A stretch of 20,000 nt of DNA, from the IMG/VR virus record IMGVR_UViG_3300021256_002084; one strand, 5' to 3'. The notes under the pieces were generated by a model, which did not search any database, had not been told where the DNA came from, and was given only the letters and a program-made list of their open reading frames with translations. A program made the position numbers and the translations under genes. Below, one piece after another: positions 472 through 20,000 of this stretch. Each line of letters begins with the position of its first letter. Within the stretch, counting starts at the first letter, position 1. This stretch comes from an uncultured virus (IMG/VR IMGVR_UViG_3300021256_002084) (Duplodnaviria > Heunggongvirae > Uroviricota > Caudoviricetes).

Positions 472-2778
472 TCATCTACGCTTATGACTATTGTACTGAA
501 AACGCTGATCGCGGAATAACGGTTCAAAAGAAGAAACTTTAATACCGAGTTTCCACAGAACGTAACTCAATGACATCTAATCTCTGTGACTATACTTTCT
601 CAGTACTTCGGCCCACATATCCATCACTTTCCTGACTTTATCCGTATTCTTACGCACTATCACATTCGTCTCGTGTAATCCATAGTGATGCGGGAACTGT
701 TCTTGTCTGTAGAAATCAAGCTGCGGATTCAAATTATTCCAAGTATCTTTCCTGTACTTTACAATTGCTTCAGCCTCGTCGTATATACAGTCTCTCTTCG
801 GATGTTTGGTGATGACGACATCATCGTCTGCTATCTTATCGACGAACTCATCGAGATTGCATTTGATAGTCAGGTTGCCGTCGACCCAAAGACATATATC
901 ATAGTTCTCAAGGAACTCATACGGCTTGATTTTGATGATGCGCTGCTTCTTGATGATTGAGAGACTTTCGTCGTTCGCTATAGATTTCGGTAACGGACGT
1001 ATCTCCCAGACTTTTGACGTGAAATTAGTCTGATCCGTAAAGCAGACGTATCTCCATCCTGGCGTCACTACCAGAGGTTCTATCAATGCATCATATTTTC
1101 CAGTAATGCAAGTATAGCATATCTTGATTGAGGTTTCTTCTCTCCTCATAAGACGTCCTTTCTATATATTAATATCGTTTATCTTGTTTCCCGTCGTATT
1201 TACATCACACAGACGGTCGCTCTTTGCAGACTTTGTCGTATATGGTCGCATAGAACGGTAATCGGGAGTTCCGACGACACGCACATTACGCTCATTCTCT
1301 ATAATCTTGAGCAATATGTCATCTGTCGTAATGTAATCGTAGATATCTTCTTCTTTTATATCTTCAACGTGAAGTATGTTAGCGGGATAAAGTACGCCAC
1401 CGACGCCAGTAGCGAACAAATCGAAAGAAGGAACCGACTTGTCCTTAGACTGGAATATCCAATCTCCGTAGTTTTTCGGAGTTATTCCGTCTTCTTTATA
1501 AGTGATACAATGACAACGGCACGCACAGACAGTATTCGGATATTCGACGTGCGTACGATACAAATCCTCTATCATCTTAGAGTAATAGTGTTGATCATCG
1601 TCTACTGTAATGATGACAGCATCTTTGTACTTCATCATAGCCGGATAATACTTCAAGTGGGGACGATAGTTCTTTTCATATATGATTATTTCTACTTTGC
1701 CCTCACGCTGAAGTTTAAGTATAGAATCAGGAACATATTGTTTATCGTCTTTGTATATGCTCAATACGACTAATTCTGGTTTAATGGTCTGCTGTGTTAA
1801 TATCTCTCTGATGACATTCGGTGCATCATTCTTCAGTCTCTCCCCGAAAGATGTCAGAGATACGATAATGCGTTCGGTCACTTCGACTTTACGCTTCATC
1901 GATGAGAGAACGCCAGTTCGTCTCGCAGGATTGATAGGATTTCTCTGAGGAAACTTCAAATCAGTAGTTTTGTTCCAGTAATCAACAAACTCTTGCTTGC
2001 CCATATGAATTCCCCAAGGATAACGGCCCAGACGTTTATGCCACAGTTCTGGATTGTTATCAATAGCGAATTCAACCGCAGTTTTAACATCAGTATTCTC
2101 GTGTACATTATATAATATATAAGAAATATACTGATCCTCGACAGTCTTGAGACGTTCGTTGCGTTTCAACCCAGAATCGGGTTTTAATATGTCAATCATT
2201 CTCTAAACCTTTCTGAGAGACAACCCACCATTTCCGCACGCTTCTTCTGGAATTCCTATAGAAGATGCGTATTCTTTCGTCCATGGCGCACCGATGTACG
2301 TCTTGTCCATAGCAACAAAATGCTTCAAGTCGTCAGCAGTTCCGAATATGTAAGCATCGAGTTGCAAGATGAGGATATACTTCCAGGCAGTGAAATGCTT
2401 ATAGAAGTCAGCAGACAAAAGCATATCCGAATATGAGTTCTTCCCGATGAAGTTTCTTGAAGGAAGTCTGAGATACTGCAATTCGACTCCAGATGCAATG
2501 GAATTGTAAACATCAGCCCTCAGAAGTTTGGGACATACAATACAGATGTCGAAATACTTACCGAGTTTCTCAACATTGTTCTTCAGATTCATCTGCTCGA
2601 ATTCTAGAATCCTGTTAGTGTACGCAGGGATGACTATCAGACACTCTGAATTTTTCTTGGGTTTAATAATATCATTCGTCTATAGCGGAGCAACAGTTCC
2701 AGTAAAGTCGTTGTACGACTATCCTGTATTTCCAACAGACGATTTGTACACATTATAGAATTCTTGAAATGAATGCAT
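472..2778 (-). CDS. 768-aa multidomain glycosyltransferase (DUF5672-like + GT-A domain + DUF616/TOD1-MUCI70-like); 5 in-frame TAG=Gln
   Basis: Track ORFs 2203-2592, 1162-2199 and 577-1149 share one frame and each ends in TAG (2203, 1162, 577); two more TAGs at 2680 and 2719. ATG 2778, TGA 472-474. Motifs: LIVIPAY..ILQLDAYIF..YIGAPW..GNGGLSLRKV(Q)RM..EDQY; IIVSLTSF..ITVDDD..TGVGGVLYP..DDI; YTCITGKYD..WVDGN..HPKRDCIYDE..SHRD(Q)MSLSYVLW. Confidence 0.85.
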
Positions 2779-2794
2779 TGAAATGTAAGAAACT

Positions 2795-2812
2795 TCGATT
2801 TTAATTATTTAT
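2795..2812 (-). promoter_or_regulatory. Putative late promoter ATAAATAATTAAAATCGA
   Basis: Identical 18-mer at 17485-17502 in front of a fibre-like gene; core resembles the T4 late promoter TATAAATA. Confidence 0.6.
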
Positions 2813-2976: not shown

Positions 2977-3870
2977 TTAAATGATTGTTCTTTCCGTTTC
3001 CCATTCAACTGCCTTGTGCCCGCCGGTCACAAGAATAGCAGCCTCATCCAAAGAGCCGACTGTCGTTCCGATTCCGACTGTATAGTTTTGTTCGTCGATG
3101 ACTACATTCGGAACTAACATATGAAGTTCGTCTATGTTCACATCATCTGCTATCTTCGTGTTTCCCAAGAACATATAACGTCCGTCGTTGAGTTTTATGC
3201 ATTCTGCGTAGAAGTCTGGACCTTTCAGCACGTGCTTCTCTATGATGCTTTCTTCTTCGTCGAAATCGTCTTGATAGTCAGAATCATTACGAACAGCGCT
3301 CAATTTATGATTACTGAGAGATATGCGTTTTGAACGGGGACGCTTGATGTTCTGCGTAAGAGCGAATCTGCGCTTCGTGTATATCCCATTGAAACCGGCA
3401 TACTCAATCATCATCATATAGTCATTGAAAACATCACGCATCAAGACTTTCTTATCGGGAGACAGATACGGTTCTTCTGGAATACTACGATTCTCCATCA
3501 GTTCAACATCACCTTGTTCAATTGCTTGAATGATAGCCAGATACTCAAGATACATAACCTCAGACTTCTCGAACTAGCCAACTGAACGTGTCAAAACACA
3601 AGCGTCTGAGAACTCACGATGTTTCTATATATGCTGCAAAATACGCTTCGACGCATCGCCAGTCTAACCGATGTATATCGAGCGTTTTTCTCCGCGAGTT
3701 TCCGGCCATATGAGCGTATATAGAGCAGCTTGCTTGATATGACTGCACTTACGTATGTAGTCTTGGTCGTATGAAATCAAGACAGTCATACACAGTTGTT
3801 TCTCCGGATAGACATACACACGAGTCTAGTCCGGACGTCCGTTAATCAAATAGCCGTCGATTTTAATCAT
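2977..3870 (-). CDS. GIY-YIG nuclease with C-terminal DUF4357 (RAMA-like) domain, 297 aa; 4 in-frame TAG=Gln
   Basis: Read-through from ATG 3870: MIKIDGYLINGRPD(Q)...AALYTLIW...SIYIG(Q)TGDASKRILQHI(Q)KH...EVMYLEYLAI...ENR; C-terminus GSLDEAAILVTGGHKAVEW. TAGs at 3826, 3664, 3625, 3574; stop TAA. Confidence 0.75.
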
Positions 3871-6089: not shown

Positions 6090-6117
6090 AACTATTCTAG
6101 TTTTCTTGAGTACAATA
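6090..6117 (+). promoter_or_regulatory. Putative phage 'middle' promoter variant AACTATT-N14-TACAATA
   Basis: Same spacing as copies at 14147, 14239, 17530, 18010. Confidence 0.45.
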
Positions 6118-6120
6118 AGT

Positions 6121-7377
6121 ATGATAAGCAGAAATAATACAAATACACAGGATACGAACAAGATTAAAGTATTTACGGCATTCTCAGGATATGACTCCCA
6201 GTGTCTCGCACTAAAGAGACTCAAGGACGAACATCCAGATTTCGACTACGAACTGGTCGGATGGTCAGAAATCGAGCCGAATGCTATCAAGGCACATAAC
6301 ATACTTTTCCCAGAAGCAGCAGACAAAAATCTCGGAGACATTGCTAAAATCGACTGGACGCAAGTTCCCGATTTCGATCTCTTCACTTATAGTAGTCCAT
6401 GCACCGACTTCAGTTTAGCCGGTTCTTTAAGCGGAGGCGAAGAAGGTAGCGGAACACGAAGCAGTCTTCTTTGGGAGTGTCGCAGATGCATTGAAGCCAA
6501 ACGACCCAAGTACTTATTGCTTGAGAACGTACAGAACCTCGTCAGCAAGCGATTCTTCGACTTGTTTTGTAAGTGGATAGACACAGTCAACGCTTTCGGG
6601 TATGAATCGTTCTGGACGACACTCAATGCCAAAGATTTCGGAGTTCCTCAAAACCGCGAAAGAGTGTTCTTAGTCTCAATACGCAAAGACTCTGAAGAAG
6701 AGAAAATCTCATTCAACTTCCCGAAACCTCTCAAGGTGAAGCCCGATGTCAAAGACATCTACGAAAAGCAAGTCTCCTCAGAATATGACATCGACTACAA
6801 GAAGATGATAGCGTGGGTCGCTAACAACCAGCAGAAAATCTTGGAGTATATATCAGAACGAAACAATATGGATATTTCCGAGATAGAAATAACAAATCCG
6901 GAAAACATCAGTATAATCTATAAAAGCAATACACAAGAAAGCGATATGCAGAAGAAAAAGAACAACCTCACTGAAGAAGAGCAGCAGTTGCTGGAAGAAC
7001 AGGAAGCAGAGCGTGAACTGGAAAGCGCAGAACTCTCTGACTTCGACGATTCATTCAAGCCTACAGTTCTCAGTGAGGAAGAGAAAAGACGTCCAGTTAA
7101 ACCGGTCATCGAATATCTGACTGAGGAAGACAAGAAGATACGTGGAAATGACAAATGCATCAAGATTATCCCTACGCCGACTCGAAGCGACGGATCTGCG
7201 CCCACACTGATGGCTACGGGTTATCAGTCAGCAGACTATAAGAACTTCTATTCAGTGGGACACTTCCCGAAACTTGGCGTCTTCGAAGTATGGCATCATA
7301 ATCCGAAGAAACTTCGCAAGAAAGCAAATAAGACAGAAACATCAGAAGAAATATCTAACACAAACACACTTATATAA
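6121..7377 (+). CDS. DNA (cytosine-5)-methyltransferase, motifs I-VIII plus variable region; motifs IX-X apparently missing
   Basis: FSGYDSQ (motif I variant), GDI, SSPCTDFS, ENV, QNRERVF; no RxLTxRE or GN(S/A) motif before TAA. ATG 6121 preferred over TTG 6106. Confidence 0.85.
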   Translation: MISRNNTNTQDTNKIKVFTAFSGYDSQCLALKRLKDEHPDFDYELVGWSEIEPNAIKAHNILFPEAADKNLGDIAKIDWTQVPDFDLFTYSSPCTDFSLAGSLSGGEEGSGTRSSLLWECRRCIEAKRPKYLLLENVQNLVSKRFFDLFCKWIDTVNAFGYESFWTTLNAKDFGVPQNRERVFLVSIRKDSEEEKISFNFPKPLKVKPDVKDIYEKQVSSEYDIDYKKMIAWVANNQQKILEYISERNNMDISEIEITNPENISIIYKSNTQESDMQKKKNNLTEEEQQLLEEQEAERELESAELSDFDDSFKPTVLSEEEKRRPVKPVIEYLTEEDKKIRGNDKCIKIIPTPTRSDGSAPTLMATGYQSADYKNFYSVGHFPKLGVFEVWHHNPKKLRKKANKTETSEEISNTNTLI

Positions 7378-11576: not shown

Positions 11577-12830
11577 ATGTAGAACTAGAAAAAGAGAGTG
11601 CTGTCGCTCTTCTCCGGTGCCGGAGGTATGGACATTGGATTTGAAGGGAACTTTATAGCACCGAGAAAATCAATAGTCCCGCTATCACTCATCGCCGCTG
11701 AATAGTCATCATTAGAAACTCAGTACACATTCGTCGAACCGACATCATTCCAGACAGTCTTTGCTAATGACATCAATCCGTCAGCAAAAGCAGCGTGGTG
11801 CCGCTATTTCAAAAAGAACTACGGCTACCAACAAGACACATATCATCTCGAATCAGTCGTCGACCTAGTCAAAAGACACTAGTCCGGAGAATCGGTCTTT
11901 CCGTCAGACATAGACGTTGTAACCGGAGGATTTCCATGTCAGGACTTCAGCACAGCGGGCAAGCGACTTGGCTTCAACTCTAACAAGAACGATTAGGGAA
12001 CACTCAGAGAAAGCGTCTCTGAAGAATCAAGAGGGAAACTCTATTACTGGATGAAACAAATCATCGACATCGTCCAGCCGAAAGTCTTCGTAGCAGAGAA
12101 TGTCAAAGGACTCTTGTCAATGGACGATGCGGCAGACATCATAAGAAGAGACTTCAGCGAGTCCGGTTACATCGTCTTGAAACCGAGACTGCTCAAAGCT
12201 TGGGAGTACGGAGTTCCAGAATCAAGAGAGCGAGTCATATTCATAGGACTGCGCCAAGATTCGTTACGAAACCAAACGCTGAGAGCAATCACAGACCAAA
12301 ATGAACTCATAAAGACAATAGAAAAGAAGTTCAACCCTTATCCACGTCCCACACACGGACAAGGACATCTCTCGCCCATAGTCTGCTGTCGTGACGTTCT
12401 CTCCCATCTTCTAGAACCAGATGACGCTGCTCTCGACGACCTCTCTCACAAGACCTATTCAAAAGCAAAGTATCTCGGAAAAGGAAAATAGGGACAGACA
12501 GAAATCAAATGGGACGGGCTCGCACCAACAATACGCTCAGAACATCACGGCAATATAGAATATCGTCGCTTGAGCGCAGAGCACGGAGGACTGATGAGTG
12601 ATGAACTCGCTGCCGGTCTCCAGGAACGCAGACTCACACCACGTGAATGTGCATTAATCTAGACATTTCCTCCCGATTATGAATTCGTCTTCAATAATGA
12701 ACAGGCTAAAGAAAAAGTCTCACGAAGCGATGCTTACAAACTCATAGGAAACGCTGTTCCTCCTGTCCTCGCATACAAGATTGCAAGACGTCTTGAAGAA
12801 GTCTGGGACGATTTGTTCCTTGATAAATAA
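11577..12830 (+). CDS. DNA (cytosine-5)-methyltransferase, M.BepI-like (probably CGCG), 417 aa; 7 in-frame TAG=Gln
   Basis: M(Q)N(Q)[48 protein letters not shown](Q)[29 protein letters not shown](Q)TFPPDY..IGNAVPP. TAGs at 11580, 11586, 11703, 11880, 11994, 12489, 12660. Specificity inferred from remembered similarity to M.BepI. Confidence 0.9.
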
Positions 12831-14351: not shown

Positions 14352-14424
14352 TGGGATGTAGTGTAAGTGGTAAACACGGGATTCTCTAAAAGTCCAGTTC
14401 TGAGCCCGAACCTCAGCGTCCCGA
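14352..14424 (+). tRNA. Amber suppressor tRNA, anticodon CUA (tRNA-Gln-like), no encoded CCA
   Basis: Acceptor TGGGATG/CGTCCCG, D stem GTGT/ACAC, anticodon stem GGATT/AGTCC with loop CT-CTA-AA (14386-14388), T stem CTGAG/CTCAG with loop CCCGAAC. Confidence 0.9.
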
Positions 14425-14431
14425 CAAAGAA

Positions 14432-14463
14432 GAAGCGAGAGATAAAATCAAATCTCTCGCTTC
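14432..14463. terminator. Perfect 12-bp hairpin after the suppressor tRNA (terminator or processing stem)
   Basis: GAAGCGAGAGAT-AAAATCAA-ATCTCTCGCTTC. Confidence 0.65.
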
Positions 14464-16774: not shown

Positions 16775-17485
16775 TTATTGAACGTTGCGGACATCCTCAA
16801 GCAAATCGTGTACATCTTTCCAGACTGTACATACATCTCCCTTGTCTGCTTTCCTGTTCTCCAAATCAGCAATTGCATTAGCAGTAGCAAGTTCAGCATC
16901 AGAAAGGTCTTCAGCCAGAGTAGATACATCACTATGCAGAGTGCTTGCATCAACATACAGTTCAGCAACTTCTTCTTTCAGAGCATCAACATCATCTTTG
17001 AGAGTCGAGATGTCAATGTCACCGAACAAATCCTCACGAACCTTGCCAAGCAACTCGTCATACTTTACGCTGACAATGAAGTTCTTCTCGTTTTCCGGAT
17101 CAGCAACGATTCCGATATAGTCACCCTCTGAGTATGTAATCGGTTCTTCCGGTTCGGGCTGCGCTGCCTAAATCATCTGCTCAACGAGAGAAGCATCTAC
17201 AGTCTTGAAAGACTTCTCAGCCACGTAACCCTCGTCGTTTACATACTTCACCAGGACTGTCTTCTCTGTATCACCAGATATAGTCAGGTTGAGAACCTTA
17301 GAACTATAAAGTTTTCCCTCGATGTATGTCACACCGAAGTCGTTTTCTGCATCATATCCGAAGTTCACACCACCGATAGTGCGATCCTCGTATGCCTGAT
17401 GTATAGTTCCACGGCCAAAGGAAATCTTTACTTGTCCGTCGGCACCGTAAATGTTATTTTCTTCCATGTTATTATATTGAATCAT
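16775..17485 (-). CDS. Putative fibre-associated protein, about 236 aa (or 230 aa from ATG 17467); 1 in-frame TAG
   Basis: Track ORFs 17168-17485 and 16775-17053 join through TAG 17168: EQMI(Q)AAQPEPEEPITYSEGDYIGIVADPENEKNFIVSVKYDELLGKV; C-terminal coiled coil. Confidence 0.8.
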
Positions 17486-17502
17486 CGATTTTAATTATTT
17501 AT
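17485..17502 (-). promoter_or_regulatory. Putative late promoter ATAAATAATTAAAATCGA
   Basis: Identical to 2795-2812. Confidence 0.6.
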
Positions 17503-17529
17503 CGTTCTATGCTCCAGTCAAAATTGAAA

Positions 17530-17993: not shown

Positions 17994-18009
17994 AGATCAA
18001 AAATTTCCA

Positions 18010-18037
18010 AACCAAATAATAAATACCGAGTATAATA
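18010..18037 (+). promoter_or_regulatory. Putative phage 'middle' promoter AACCAAA-N14-TATAATA upstream of uvsX
   Basis: One mismatch to the motif, identical spacing. Confidence 0.6.
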
Positions 18038-18116
18038 TATAAAGTGATAATACTATCTCAGTACTCAATGTCACTTAATTTAAAAAACGACAAAAATTAT
18101 TTTATATAAGATAATA

Positions 18117-19379
18117 ATGGCTAAGAAAACCGTAAAGAAAGAGGGCGCCCTGCCCGATCCTATGAAAATGATGTAGAAAATCGATAAAGACGTTGAAGTC
18201 ATCGAAGATTCTGCATATTCTAATATTGAGGACTGGATTTCATCCGGTAACTATATTCTCGATGCTTGTGTATCTGGAAGTTGCTTTAAGGGTATTGCGC
18301 CAGCTGGTCGTGTGACTACACTCACTGGAGACCCAGGAACCGGTAAGTCTTATCTGGCTTGTTCGTTTGCTCGTGAAGCACAGAAGAAAAACTACACTGT
18401 ACTTTATCTTGATAGTGAAGGTGCTATAGACAAGGCTTTCGTATCAAGACTCGGTGTAGACACATCAAAGTTATTAATCAGACAAGTAAGCACTGTTCTT
18501 GAAGTTTCTCAGATTATTTTGAATCTGTGCCGGGAACTCGAAGCACAGGAAGAAGAGTACGGAGAGCACAATAAATTCGCTATCGTGCTTGACTCGCTCG
18601 GAAACTTGTCAACACAGTCAGAAGTAGAGAATACTGCTGCCGGTGAGAACAAACGAGACTTGAAGCGTGCGCAAGACGTCAAGCAGTTGTTCAGAACTTG
18701 TACGACGCCTATCGCAAGAATGAAGATTCCTTTCGTAGTGATTACTCACCAATATGCATCTATCGGTAGTTATGTGCCTACCAACATTGCTTCTGGTGGT
18801 TCCGGATTGGGTTATAACTCTAGTGTAACACTCGAACTTAGTGTCTCTAAACTTGCTGATAAAGCAAACGACGCTGCTGCTGCAAAAGCCGCAAATGCTG
18901 AAGACGTTGTAAAGACTGGCGTAACTGTGACAGCAAAACCGAAGAAGAGCAGATTCACCATTCCTCGTAAAGTACGTTTCCAGATTCCATATTATAAGAA
19001 GCCAAACCCATATGTCGGTCTTGACGGATTTGTGGGAGATTTCGAAAAGAGCGGAATATGTCGTGGCGTATTGCTGAGCGAAAAAGAGTATAGCAAACTG
19101 TCTGACGCTGATAAAGCAAAAGTATACGTTTTCGAAAAAGACGGTCAGACGCTGTACTGTCAGCAGAAAGATACTGCTCGTTCAATTGTCGTAAAACACT
19201 TGGGTGAAGCAATTCCTATTCCTGACTTGTTCACTGATAAAGTATTCACAGAAGAATATCTGCACTGGCTGGACGATAACGTCATAAGACCGGCATTTGA
19301 ACTTCCCGACCAGAACGCTTTCGATGATGTCAAAGAAATCGAAGACTTAATCGAGGTCTCGTCTGAGGAAAATGAGTAA
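18117..19379 (+). CDS. uvsX: UvsX/RecA-like recombinase, 420 aa; 1 in-frame TAG at codon 20
   Basis: ATG 18117, TAG 18174; WISSGNYILDACVSG..Walker A GDPGTGKS, YLDSEGA, Walker B IVLDSLGNL, SGGSGLGYNSS, KSRF. Confidence 0.9.
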
Positions 19380-19492
19380 ATTGAATTTTGACTATTTTAG
19401 TCATAGATAAATAATTTACTGAGACGATTAAACTATTTTCGATTTTTACCGTCAAAGTAATTAGATAAATAATAAAATTGATTCTTTTAAAG

Positions 19493-19591
19493 ATGCAACA
19501 CAGACTGTTCAACATAGCGACCACATCAACAGCGAATGATAATAATACATCATCCGCAGATGAACGCTGCGTACTGTTGGGACGTCTATAA
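19493..19591 (+). CDS. Putative 32-aa leader peptide
   Basis: MQHRLFNIATTSTANDNNTSSADERCVLLGRL*; downstream of GATAAATA (19406, 19464); its 3' end overlaps the antiterminator arm. Confidence 0.5.
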   Translation: MQHRLFNIATTSTANDNNTSSADERCVLLGRL

Positions 19592-19617
19592 CGGAATACT
19601 ATAATGCTGAATAATAT

Positions 19618-19657
19618 AGTCCGGATGTCCCGAAAAAGACGTCCGGATTTCTTTTTT
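19618..19657 (+). terminator. Intrinsic terminator (putative attenuator) upstream of tRNA cluster
   Basis: AGTCCGGATGTC-CCGAAAAA-GACGTCCGGATT-TCTTTTTT. Confidence 0.8.
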
Positions 19658-19688
19658 CGCATAACGGATGTAAAAAGTTGCTGAAAAG

Positions 19689-19720
19689 TTTGCATATTTC
19701 AAATTTAATTTGTAATTTTG
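19689..19720 (+). promoter_or_regulatory. Bacteroidetes primary-sigma promoter upstream of tRNA cluster
   Basis: TTTG-N20-TAATTTTG, a perfect consensus match. Confidence 0.75.
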
Positions 19721-19783
19721 CAGCGTTTTTGAGAGACTAAATATAAAAATGAAGATATAATCTTAGAGAAGATTAAGAAATAT

Positions 19784-19855
19784 GGCCCGTTCGTCTATCG
19801 GTTAGGACGTGAGATTTTCATTCTCAAAAGAGCAGTTCGATTCTGCTACGGGCTA
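19784..19855 (+). tRNA. trnE: tRNA-Glu (TTC)
   Basis: GGCCCGT/ACGGGCT acceptor, TGAGA-TT-TTC-AT-TCTCA anticodon arm, TTCGATT T-loop. Confidence 0.95.
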
Positions 19856-19865
19856 CGAACTTAAT

Positions 19866-19939
19866 GGTGTGTTAGTTCAGTTGGTTAGAATGCCTGCCTG
19901 TCACGCAGGAGGTCACGGGTTCGAGTCCCGTACACACCG
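19866..19939 (+). tRNA. trnD: tRNA-Asp (GTC)
   Basis: GGTGTGT/ACACACC acceptor, CCTGC-CT-GTC-AC-GCAGG anticodon arm, TTCGAGT T-loop. Confidence 0.95.
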
Positions 19940-19947
19940 CTGTTAAT

Positions 19948-20000
19948 GCTTGCGTAGCTCAGTTGGTTAGAGCACCTGACTGTTAATCAGGGGGTCGTTG
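19948..20000 (+). tRNA. trnN: tRNA-Asn (GTT), truncated by window end
   Basis: GCTC/GAGC D stem, CCTGA-CT-GTT-AA-TCAGG anticodon arm. Confidence 0.9.

Follow-up and report, generated by a model that had tools for sequence, protein, structure and literature searches.

In a 20,000-nucleotide (nt) stretch of DNA from an uncultured virus of the class Caudoviricetes (IMG/VR record IMGVR_UViG_3300021256_002084; the whole stretch is called the window here), a RecA/UvsX-like recombinase gene is separated from a cluster of transfer RNA (tRNA) genes by a region in which we observed two promoter-like sites, a short open reading frame (ORF) and an intrinsic terminator whose 5' arm can pair instead with the end of the ORF. 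We conclude that the interval 19386-19657 is a real leader unit and that it is probably transcribed. In folding models it contains the full four-region layout of classical attenuators. From these observations, we tentatively hypothesize that the leader is a ribosome-sensed attenuator placed before the tRNA array, a reading that we regard as the likeliest of those weighed without holding it to be probable.

Terminator and competing antiterminator

The preliminary description of this DNA, made from the letters alone, had placed a terminator between the ORF and the tRNA genes, and we found it there: a 12-pair stem (19618-19649; all leader features are on the plus strand) closes an 8-nt loop and is followed by a U tract at 19650-19657 (TCTTTTTT). 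A G+C-rich stem-loop running directly into a U tract has the form of an intrinsic terminator, and this site is among the three strongest terminator-like sites of the window. The alternative hairpin of the same description was also present, 19577-19586 pairing with 19624-19633 in ten pairs (two of them G-U), with inner pairs between 19592-19594 and 19621-19623 and between 19598-19603 and 19615-19620. The 5' arm of this antiterminator (region 2, 19577-19603) comprises the last four codons of the ORF, its stop codon and the 12 nt beyond, and its 3' arm (region 3, 19615-19633) is also the 5' arm of the terminator together with part of the terminator loop.

Computed energies were -19.1 kcal/mol for the proposed antiterminator and -18.7 kcal/mol for the terminator stem. 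When the RNA was truncated at 19633 or 19637 (i.e. before the 3' arm of the terminator is present), the minimum-energy fold was the proposed antiterminator, and the full-length leader RNA folded to the terminator. Folding successive prefixes of the RNA revealed an order of pairings. Region 2 (here about 19575-19597) has upstream partners, either at 19502-19514 or at the 5' end of the RNA (19481-19496, including the AUG); in the former case, pairing of 19502-19514 with 19575-19588 (1:2) extends hairpin A, which lies inside the ORF at 19512-19572. The 1:2 pairing forms first, the 2:3 pairing is the minimum-energy structure when the RNA reaches 19630-19640, and from 19645-19650 the terminator (3:4) appears and the 1:2 pairing returns.

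To judge how often such a competing arm arises by chance, the sequence 19493-19617 was dinucleotide-shuffled 1000 times with 19618-19637 held fixed. The terminator 5' arm gains -12.7 kcal/mol from upstream pairing, a value that was equalled in 12 of the 1000 shuffles (mean -6.0, standard deviation 2.3) and that must be read as post hoc, because the finding was selected for attenuator-like pairing. All 12 bases of the terminator arm were paired upstream in 19 of the 1000.

The leader open reading frame

The 32-codon ORF, reported earlier at 19493-19591, was confirmed: it begins with ATG at 19493, ends with TAA at 19589-19591 and encodes the peptide MQHRLFNIATTSTANDNNTSSADERCVLLGRL, with Asn-Asp-Asn-Asn at codons 15-18, which fall in the loop of hairpin A, and Asp-Glu at codons 23-24. 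By itself, an ORF of this length is ordinary. It has no Shine-Dalgarno sequence, but neither has any other gene start in the window (absent at all 21 inspected), so that this lack is no argument against translation. An exact look-up of the peptide in a protein collection and a search against Pfam each returned no match. On the opposite strand, an ORF of 121 amino acids (19333-19695) matched neither PHROG nor Pfam, was absent from the protein collection and was taken as spurious.

Promoter-like motifs upstream of the leader

Two GATAAATA motifs had been noted ahead of the ORF, and we found them at 19406 and 19464. Each forms the downstream half of a bipartite promoter-like motif, TTTT[G/T]AC-N12-14-GATAAATAAT, and transcription into the leader is for this reason plausible. 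The window contains three copies, namely P1 (19386-19415, plus strand; TTTTGAC-N13-GATAAATAAT), P2 (19443-19473, plus strand; TTTTTAC-N14-GATAAATAAT) and a copy at 17494-17523 on the minus strand; none of 200 shuffled sequences matched the pattern, a post hoc comparison in that the three sites themselves supplied the pattern. The copy on the minus strand is kept in a related locus, L006, whose recombinase is 99% identical and whose sequence ends within that gene, and a similar form occupies the corresponding divergent position in L007 (recombinase 68%). This copy ends 8 nt ahead of an ATG at 17485, which suggests that the messenger RNA (mRNA) would be leaderless or nearly so. Two promoter-like sites standing straight ahead of a strong terminator make sense only if the short RNA, or its read-through, matters.

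A related ATAAATAATTAAAATCGA string, common to the 17494 site, occurs at 2778-2812 (minus strand) ahead of a TAG-rich frame of 768 codons starting at 2778. A scan of IMG/VR for the bipartite motif gave 63 single matches on unrelated contigs, none of them similar to the window and one near a tRNA, which we take as background. The match near a tRNA (L097, 601-772) places the motif about 55 nt upstream of a tRNA-Leu(TAA) and is a single coincidence among the 63.

Evidence for a transcribed unit

A 270-nt contig assembled from RNA libraries (X15 and X16; depth 3.7) matches the leader. Its positions 95-270 correspond to 19481-19656 with two differences, and its remaining 94 nt are unlike the window. 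At 19481, 8 nt past P2, the contig itself ends, and the match stops in the U tract, so that the contig coincides with the predicted start and stop of a putative leader transcript running from P2 to the U tract (19481-19656); the coincidence is notable, with the caveat that contigs cannot prove RNA ends. The same libraries also hold recombinase contigs (19059-19294). None of their contigs lies over 19307-19454 or matches 19657-19676, which is uninformative at a depth of about 3.

A DNA contig from a variant strain (X3) spans 18900-19848 and differs from the window by 13 substitutions and one deletion. The changes fall in the recombinase gene (18959, 19292, 19334 and 19355), between that gene and the leader (19399, 19422, 19434 and 19460, all outside the motif cores, so that those of P1 and P2 are identical in the two strains) and just past the U tract (19659, 19660, 19663 and 19665, with the deletion at 19688). 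The leader itself (19474-19658) carries one change in 185 nt, compared with nine in the 126 nt of its flanks (19380-19473 and 19659-19690; Fisher p = 0.0016, with post hoc partitions and a single strain comparison).

A small gene without any link to the tRNAs would account for much of this. Its product, a structured RNA with a length of about 176-235 nt, would be a small RNA of the phage or the mRNA of a 32-residue peptide, and the competing hairpin would be incidental or a feature of the folding pathway. The unit is bracketed by promoter-like sites and a strong terminator, the RNA-library contig covers exactly 19481-19656, the leader is less variable than its flanks, the tRNAs appear to have a promoter of their own (discussed below) and the fold of the complete RNA has unusual stability (z -3.4 to -4.5, with none of 200 shuffled sequences folding as well). 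However, this stability derives largely from the terminator, since the fold of hairpin A alone is unexceptional (z -1.36 for 19481-19576, terminator excluded); the unit matches no Rfam family; the peptide lacks a Pfam match, is absent from the protein collection and has a codon usage unlike that of phage genes; and the RNA contig continues for 94 nt beyond 19656, though in sequence unlike the window. Such a gene would also leave unexplained why the ORF stops within the terminator-competing arm (the pairing equalled in 12 of 1000 shuffles). We consider a small gene of this kind, as the whole explanation, somewhat unlikely. It is compatible with an attenuator and both can be true, because the short RNA may be the terminated form of the attenuator transcript.

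Proposed mechanism and ribosome-mask simulations

Under the attenuator hypothesis, P1 and P2 would start RNAs near 19423 and near 19481 that end at the intrinsic terminator. Transcripts of the recombinase gene would also enter the leader, and a conditional terminator would set the read-through from P1, P2 and that gene into the tRNA array. If the ORF were not translated, region 2 (19575-19597) would pair upstream and the terminator would form; if a ribosome reached the TAA at 19589, it would cover region 2 and the terminator would form as well. A ribosome delayed earlier in the ORF would leave region 2 free to pair with 19615-19633, the terminator would lose its 5' arm and transcription would read through. 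The position of the stop codon inside the terminator-competing arm and the modelled order of the 1:2, 2:3 and 3:4 pairings favour this hypothesis.

We simulated stalled ribosomes in two ways, with either a full mask, covering all RNA up to the front edge of the ribosome, or a local mask of 31 nt that leaves the 5' region free. With the full mask and the RNA cut at 19637, the antiterminator probability was 0.972, 0.963, 0.972 and 0.865 for ribosomes at Asn15, Asn18, Asp23 and Glu24, respectively, and 0.000 for a ribosome at the stop codon. When the RNA extended to 19649, the terminator probability was 0.78, 0.13, 0.81 and 0.70 for the same four positions and 0.999 at the stop codon, from which it follows that read-through would be possible only through a kinetic preference for the earlier structure.

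The choice between the 2:3 and 3:4 pairings might instead be made by a protein, by a small RNA or tRNA, or by the speed of RNA polymerase, with the ORF irrelevant. The alternative folds, which are real in silico, and the weakness of the codon match between leader peptide and tRNAs (see below) speak for it. Nevertheless, we identified no binding motif, and a search of 18000-20000 against Rfam (E up to 1) returned nothing in 19425-19783 and no riboswitch, T-box, leader or small-RNA match; the matches in 18000-20000 were the three tRNAs, a sub-threshold YrlA overlapping the tRNAs and a chance-level SCARNA7 at 19358-19424. A switch that ignores ribosomes also leaves as a coincidence the stop codon lying where a terminating ribosome would mask region 2. 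We rate it as very unlikely.

Evidence against an attenuator

We stress that a number of results weigh against the attenuator hypothesis, and we gather them here. The first comes from the simulations themselves. The idea put forward in the preliminary description, that a ribosome at the stop masks the antiterminator whereas stalling upstream spares it, holds insofar as the mask at the stop codon abolishes the antiterminator and masks at the Asn, Asp and Glu codons retain it; with the local 31-nt mask and a free 5' region, however, the terminator still wins, its fold having a probability of 0.997-0.999 in every scenario at equilibrium.

The second concerns the codons. Asn, Asp and Glu make up 7 of the 32 residues, which is the background of the phage proteins (21%; probability of at least seven, 0.53), and the earlier argument from leader codons that match the downstream tRNAs is accordingly weak. 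The sole codon signal is the Asn-Asp-Asn-Asn run, a run of at least four such residues within 32 having p of about 0.045. The codon-usage log-likelihood ratio of the ORF is -3.0, compared with 9.5 +/- 4.9 for windows of real genes (0.4% of which score as low) and -16.5 +/- 9.2 for out-of-frame windows, although a low score does not exclude translation because a leader peptide need not resemble a protein. Furthermore, the Asn, Asp and Glu codons (19535-19546 and 19559-19564) lie downstream of both candidates for region 1, unlike those of trp- and his-type leaders. Of the features of trp/his-type leaders, then, the layout stands in silico and is fuller than was first described, while codon enrichment, the placing of the codons inside region 1 and the dependence of the downstream genes on read-through do not. 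We think it quite unlikely that the leader is a decoding test proper, in which stalling at Asn, Asp or Glu codons (e.g. through host anticodon nucleases or a mismatch in codon supply) would cause read-through into the tRNA-Glu, -Asp and -Asn array and so provide feedback on tRNA supply.

Third, the tRNA array very probably has its own promoter of the host type, to judge from its sequence. A promoter-like site at 19689-19720 (plus strand; TTTG-N20-TAATTTTG), between the terminator and the tRNAs, had been pointed out as a separate host-sigma promoter, and it is indeed present, resembling the Bacteroides housekeeping-sigma consensus (TTTG at -33 and TAnnTTTG at -7). No other site in the window matches TTTG-N17-23-TAnnTTTG; taken alone, the match is weak, 0.59 being expected and 87 of 200 shuffles having at least one. 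Its 25-nt core is identical in one Bacteroidales genome, that of Candidatus Equimonas enterica (a metagenome-assembled genome, L068), and 19690-19722 attracts a pile-up of contigs from many other gut organisms, to a depth of up to about 1200, compared with about 12 for the phage. It is this core identity and this pile-up that point to a host-type promoter belonging to the array. Given such a promoter, the switch could only add to tRNA transcription and not gate it outright; its contribution would count, for example, when transcription depends on phage-type promoters.

Fourth, the evidence for transcription and from strain variation is limited. The contig tables of X15 and X16 are identical and probably one data set, so that they amount to a single RNA observation, for which DNA carry-over is possible. 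The sole change within the leader of the X3 strain, G19517A, replaces Ala9 with Thr and disrupts hairpin A at the G-C pair 19517-19567, leaving the 2:3 and 3:4 pairings untouched; it backs neither the coding nor the structural reading.

Comparison with related loci

The last points of this kind come from relatives. The recombinase gene upstream of the leader (18117-19379, plus strand; 420 codons, one of them an in-frame TAG read as Gln; PHROG UvsX-like, Pfam RecA) has as its best named relatives the genes of Prevotella phages Lak-A1, Lak-A2 and Lak-C1, with 54-55% of the protein residues identical along 98-100% of the length. A search with it recovered three IMG/VR loci (56-61%) and 16 loci on metagenome contigs (53-99%), and none of these 19 has a tRNA within the locus DNA examined. 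In L005 (89%) and L004 (85%), a terminator lies about 10-15 nt past the recombinase stop codon and is followed by a convergent gene, and the whole leader region is absent from this place. A second X3 contig resembles the window only as far as 19346. As far as these sequences reach, synteny with the nearest reachable relatives does not extend to the leader and the tRNA array.

We could find no homologue of the leader. In a blastn search of 50,697 phage records, the matches were confined to the tRNA part, and in a second blastn search, of 60 loci, the best match had E 0.006 over 35 nt. Exact-pattern scans yielded no IMG/VR match for three stretches from the leader or the tRNA junction and none in the species genomes for the terminator, and the 5' half of tRNA-Glu matched 41 IMG/VR loci, none of which has a related upstream region. 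We dismissed as chance a 16-nt match of 19738-19753 to L003, L012, L013 and L014; the window contains the string a single time, and a match arose in 92 of 200 shuffles. With no homologue there is no covariation to support the pairings and no evidence that the frame is conserved. Within the Lak phages, the main tRNA cluster of Lak-A2 shares its strand with the recombinase gene and follows it at a distance of about 16 kb. We found no terminator-like site upstream of the first tRNA in the two Lak-A2 clusters examined or in a distant, perhaps related record (G004), and no copy of the bipartite motif in Lak-A2. The terminator result is a weak negative, because the scan needs three G-C pairs and these genomes are very AT-rich.

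The arrangement in the relatives raises the possibility that the region is plain intergenic sequence, with 19618-19657 simply terminating the recombinase operon, the ORF and the alternative pairing arising by chance in an AT-rich spacer and the tRNAs transcribed only from 19689-19720. A recombinase gene followed by a terminator is what L004, L005 and L001 contain, the 32-codon ORF is ordinary in length and of background composition, the figure of 12 in 1000 is post hoc, and conservation is seen in near-identical strains only. On the other side, two copies of a motif that none of 200 shuffled sequences matched stand between the gene and the terminator; the terminator is 240 nt past the stop codon, compared with directly after it in the relatives; the low variation extends over the whole 185-nt leader and is not confined to the hairpin; and the RNA-library cover begins at 19481, with none at 19307-19454. 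We find plain spacer the least comfortable of the readings, and consider it unlikely.

Relation to known regulatory systems

The proposed attenuator resembles the class I leader-peptide attenuators (trp, his, leu, thr and pheA) in having a short leader ORF, a terminator before the genes and an antiterminator that shares a strand with the terminator, as well as a stop codon positioned for ribosome masking of the antiterminator 5' arm and, in silico, the 1:2, 2:3 and 3:4 pairings. It differs from them in that the downstream genes are tRNAs rather than biosynthetic enzymes, the presumed regulatory codons are at background frequency, form no long run and fall outside region 1, the terminator is followed by a separate promoter, and the phage concerned is a megaphage with a Bacteroidota host. 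Phage T4 encodes, in its tRNA region, small stable RNAs whose function is unknown. The leader would be like these in being a small structured RNA that adjoins a phage tRNA cluster, but the T4 RNAs are processed from a tRNA precursor, whereas the unit described here has promoter-like sites and a terminator of its own. In Sinorhizobium meliloti, rnTrpL is a small RNA derived from an attenuator, according to two reports (PMC6614838, PMC7968998); by analogy only, the terminated leader transcript could be a stable functional RNA and also encode the leader peptide.

The titles and abstracts of the literature on phage tRNAs and on attenuation contain no published case, among those we found, of attenuation of phage tRNA genes. 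The purpose and expression timing of such genes are debated, and compensation for codon usage and escape from tRNA-targeting defences have been proposed (PMC10264068). If the attenuator hypothesis is true, the leader would sense how fast ribosomes move and respond with tRNA transcription, which would put the oldest known logic of RNA regulation to a new use and tie translation stress to the supply of phage tRNAs in a directly testable way. The modest reading, too, is useful: it yields a candidate promoter motif of the phage and delimits a small transcription unit in a megaphage lineage that is uncultured and uses an alternative code. The transcription signals of the Lak lineage are little known, and the word 'promoter' is absent from the available portions of PMC6784885 and PMC8346664.

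The tRNA genes and the source phage

The three tRNAs that had been reported after the leader were all recovered: tRNA-Glu (TTC) at 19784-19856, tRNA-Asp (GTC) at 19866-19940 and tRNA-Asn (GTT) at 19948-20000 (all plus strand). The third, an Rfam tRNA match whose anticodon loop was read from the sequence, is cut at its 3' end by the end of the window. DNA contigs from X1 and X3 that carry the leader cease to match the window at 19848-19856, in or at the end of tRNA-Glu, and continue in unlike sequence; it seems that the make-up of the tRNA array differs between strains, or that assemblies break at tRNA repeats.

Judged by its genes and codon use, the window belongs to a Lak-like, TAG-recoded Prevotella megaphage, and the host is probably a Bacteroidota (Prevotella-type) bacterium. 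When TAG is read as sense, long frames emerge from fragments at 472-2778 (minus strand, five TAGs), 11577-12830 (plus strand, seven) and 18117-19379 (plus strand, one), and a further long frame containing TAG lies at 2977-3870. A tRNA with anticodon CTA, i.e. a TAG suppressor (labelled tRNA-Pyl by ARAGORN), is encoded at 14352-14425, and together with these frames it indicates that the phage decodes TAG as sense. Directly 3' of this tRNA is a perfect 12-pair bidirectional terminator (14432-14463). Contigs that carry members of the recombinase's 90% cluster reach 751 kb, and the identical protein is encoded on one of 107.8 kb. The stretch is present in runs of 13 studies, of which the named organisms are animal-gut metagenomes. 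The recombinase identity of 54-55%, the sense use of TAG, the suppressor tRNA, the occurrence in animal guts and the many tRNAs on the recombinase strand are all shared with the Lak megaphages (PMC6784885, PMC8346664). Unlike Lak, the window has a G+C content of 40%, and Lak-A2 lacks the bipartite motif and, in our simple scan, a terminator ahead of its two tRNA clusters.

Among the relatives, the recombinase match in L001 and L002 (3001-4861) spans 1861 nt for 417 residues, and L016-L019 and the Lak-B records contain partial matches (residues 208-420 or 9-228 only) at two places per record. This suggests that related megaphages have recombinase genes that are split or carry insertions (an intron or intein). 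The window also encodes two DNA methyltransferase-like proteins (PHROG 116/363), at 6106-7377 and 11577-12830, the second of which contains seven in-frame TAG codons.

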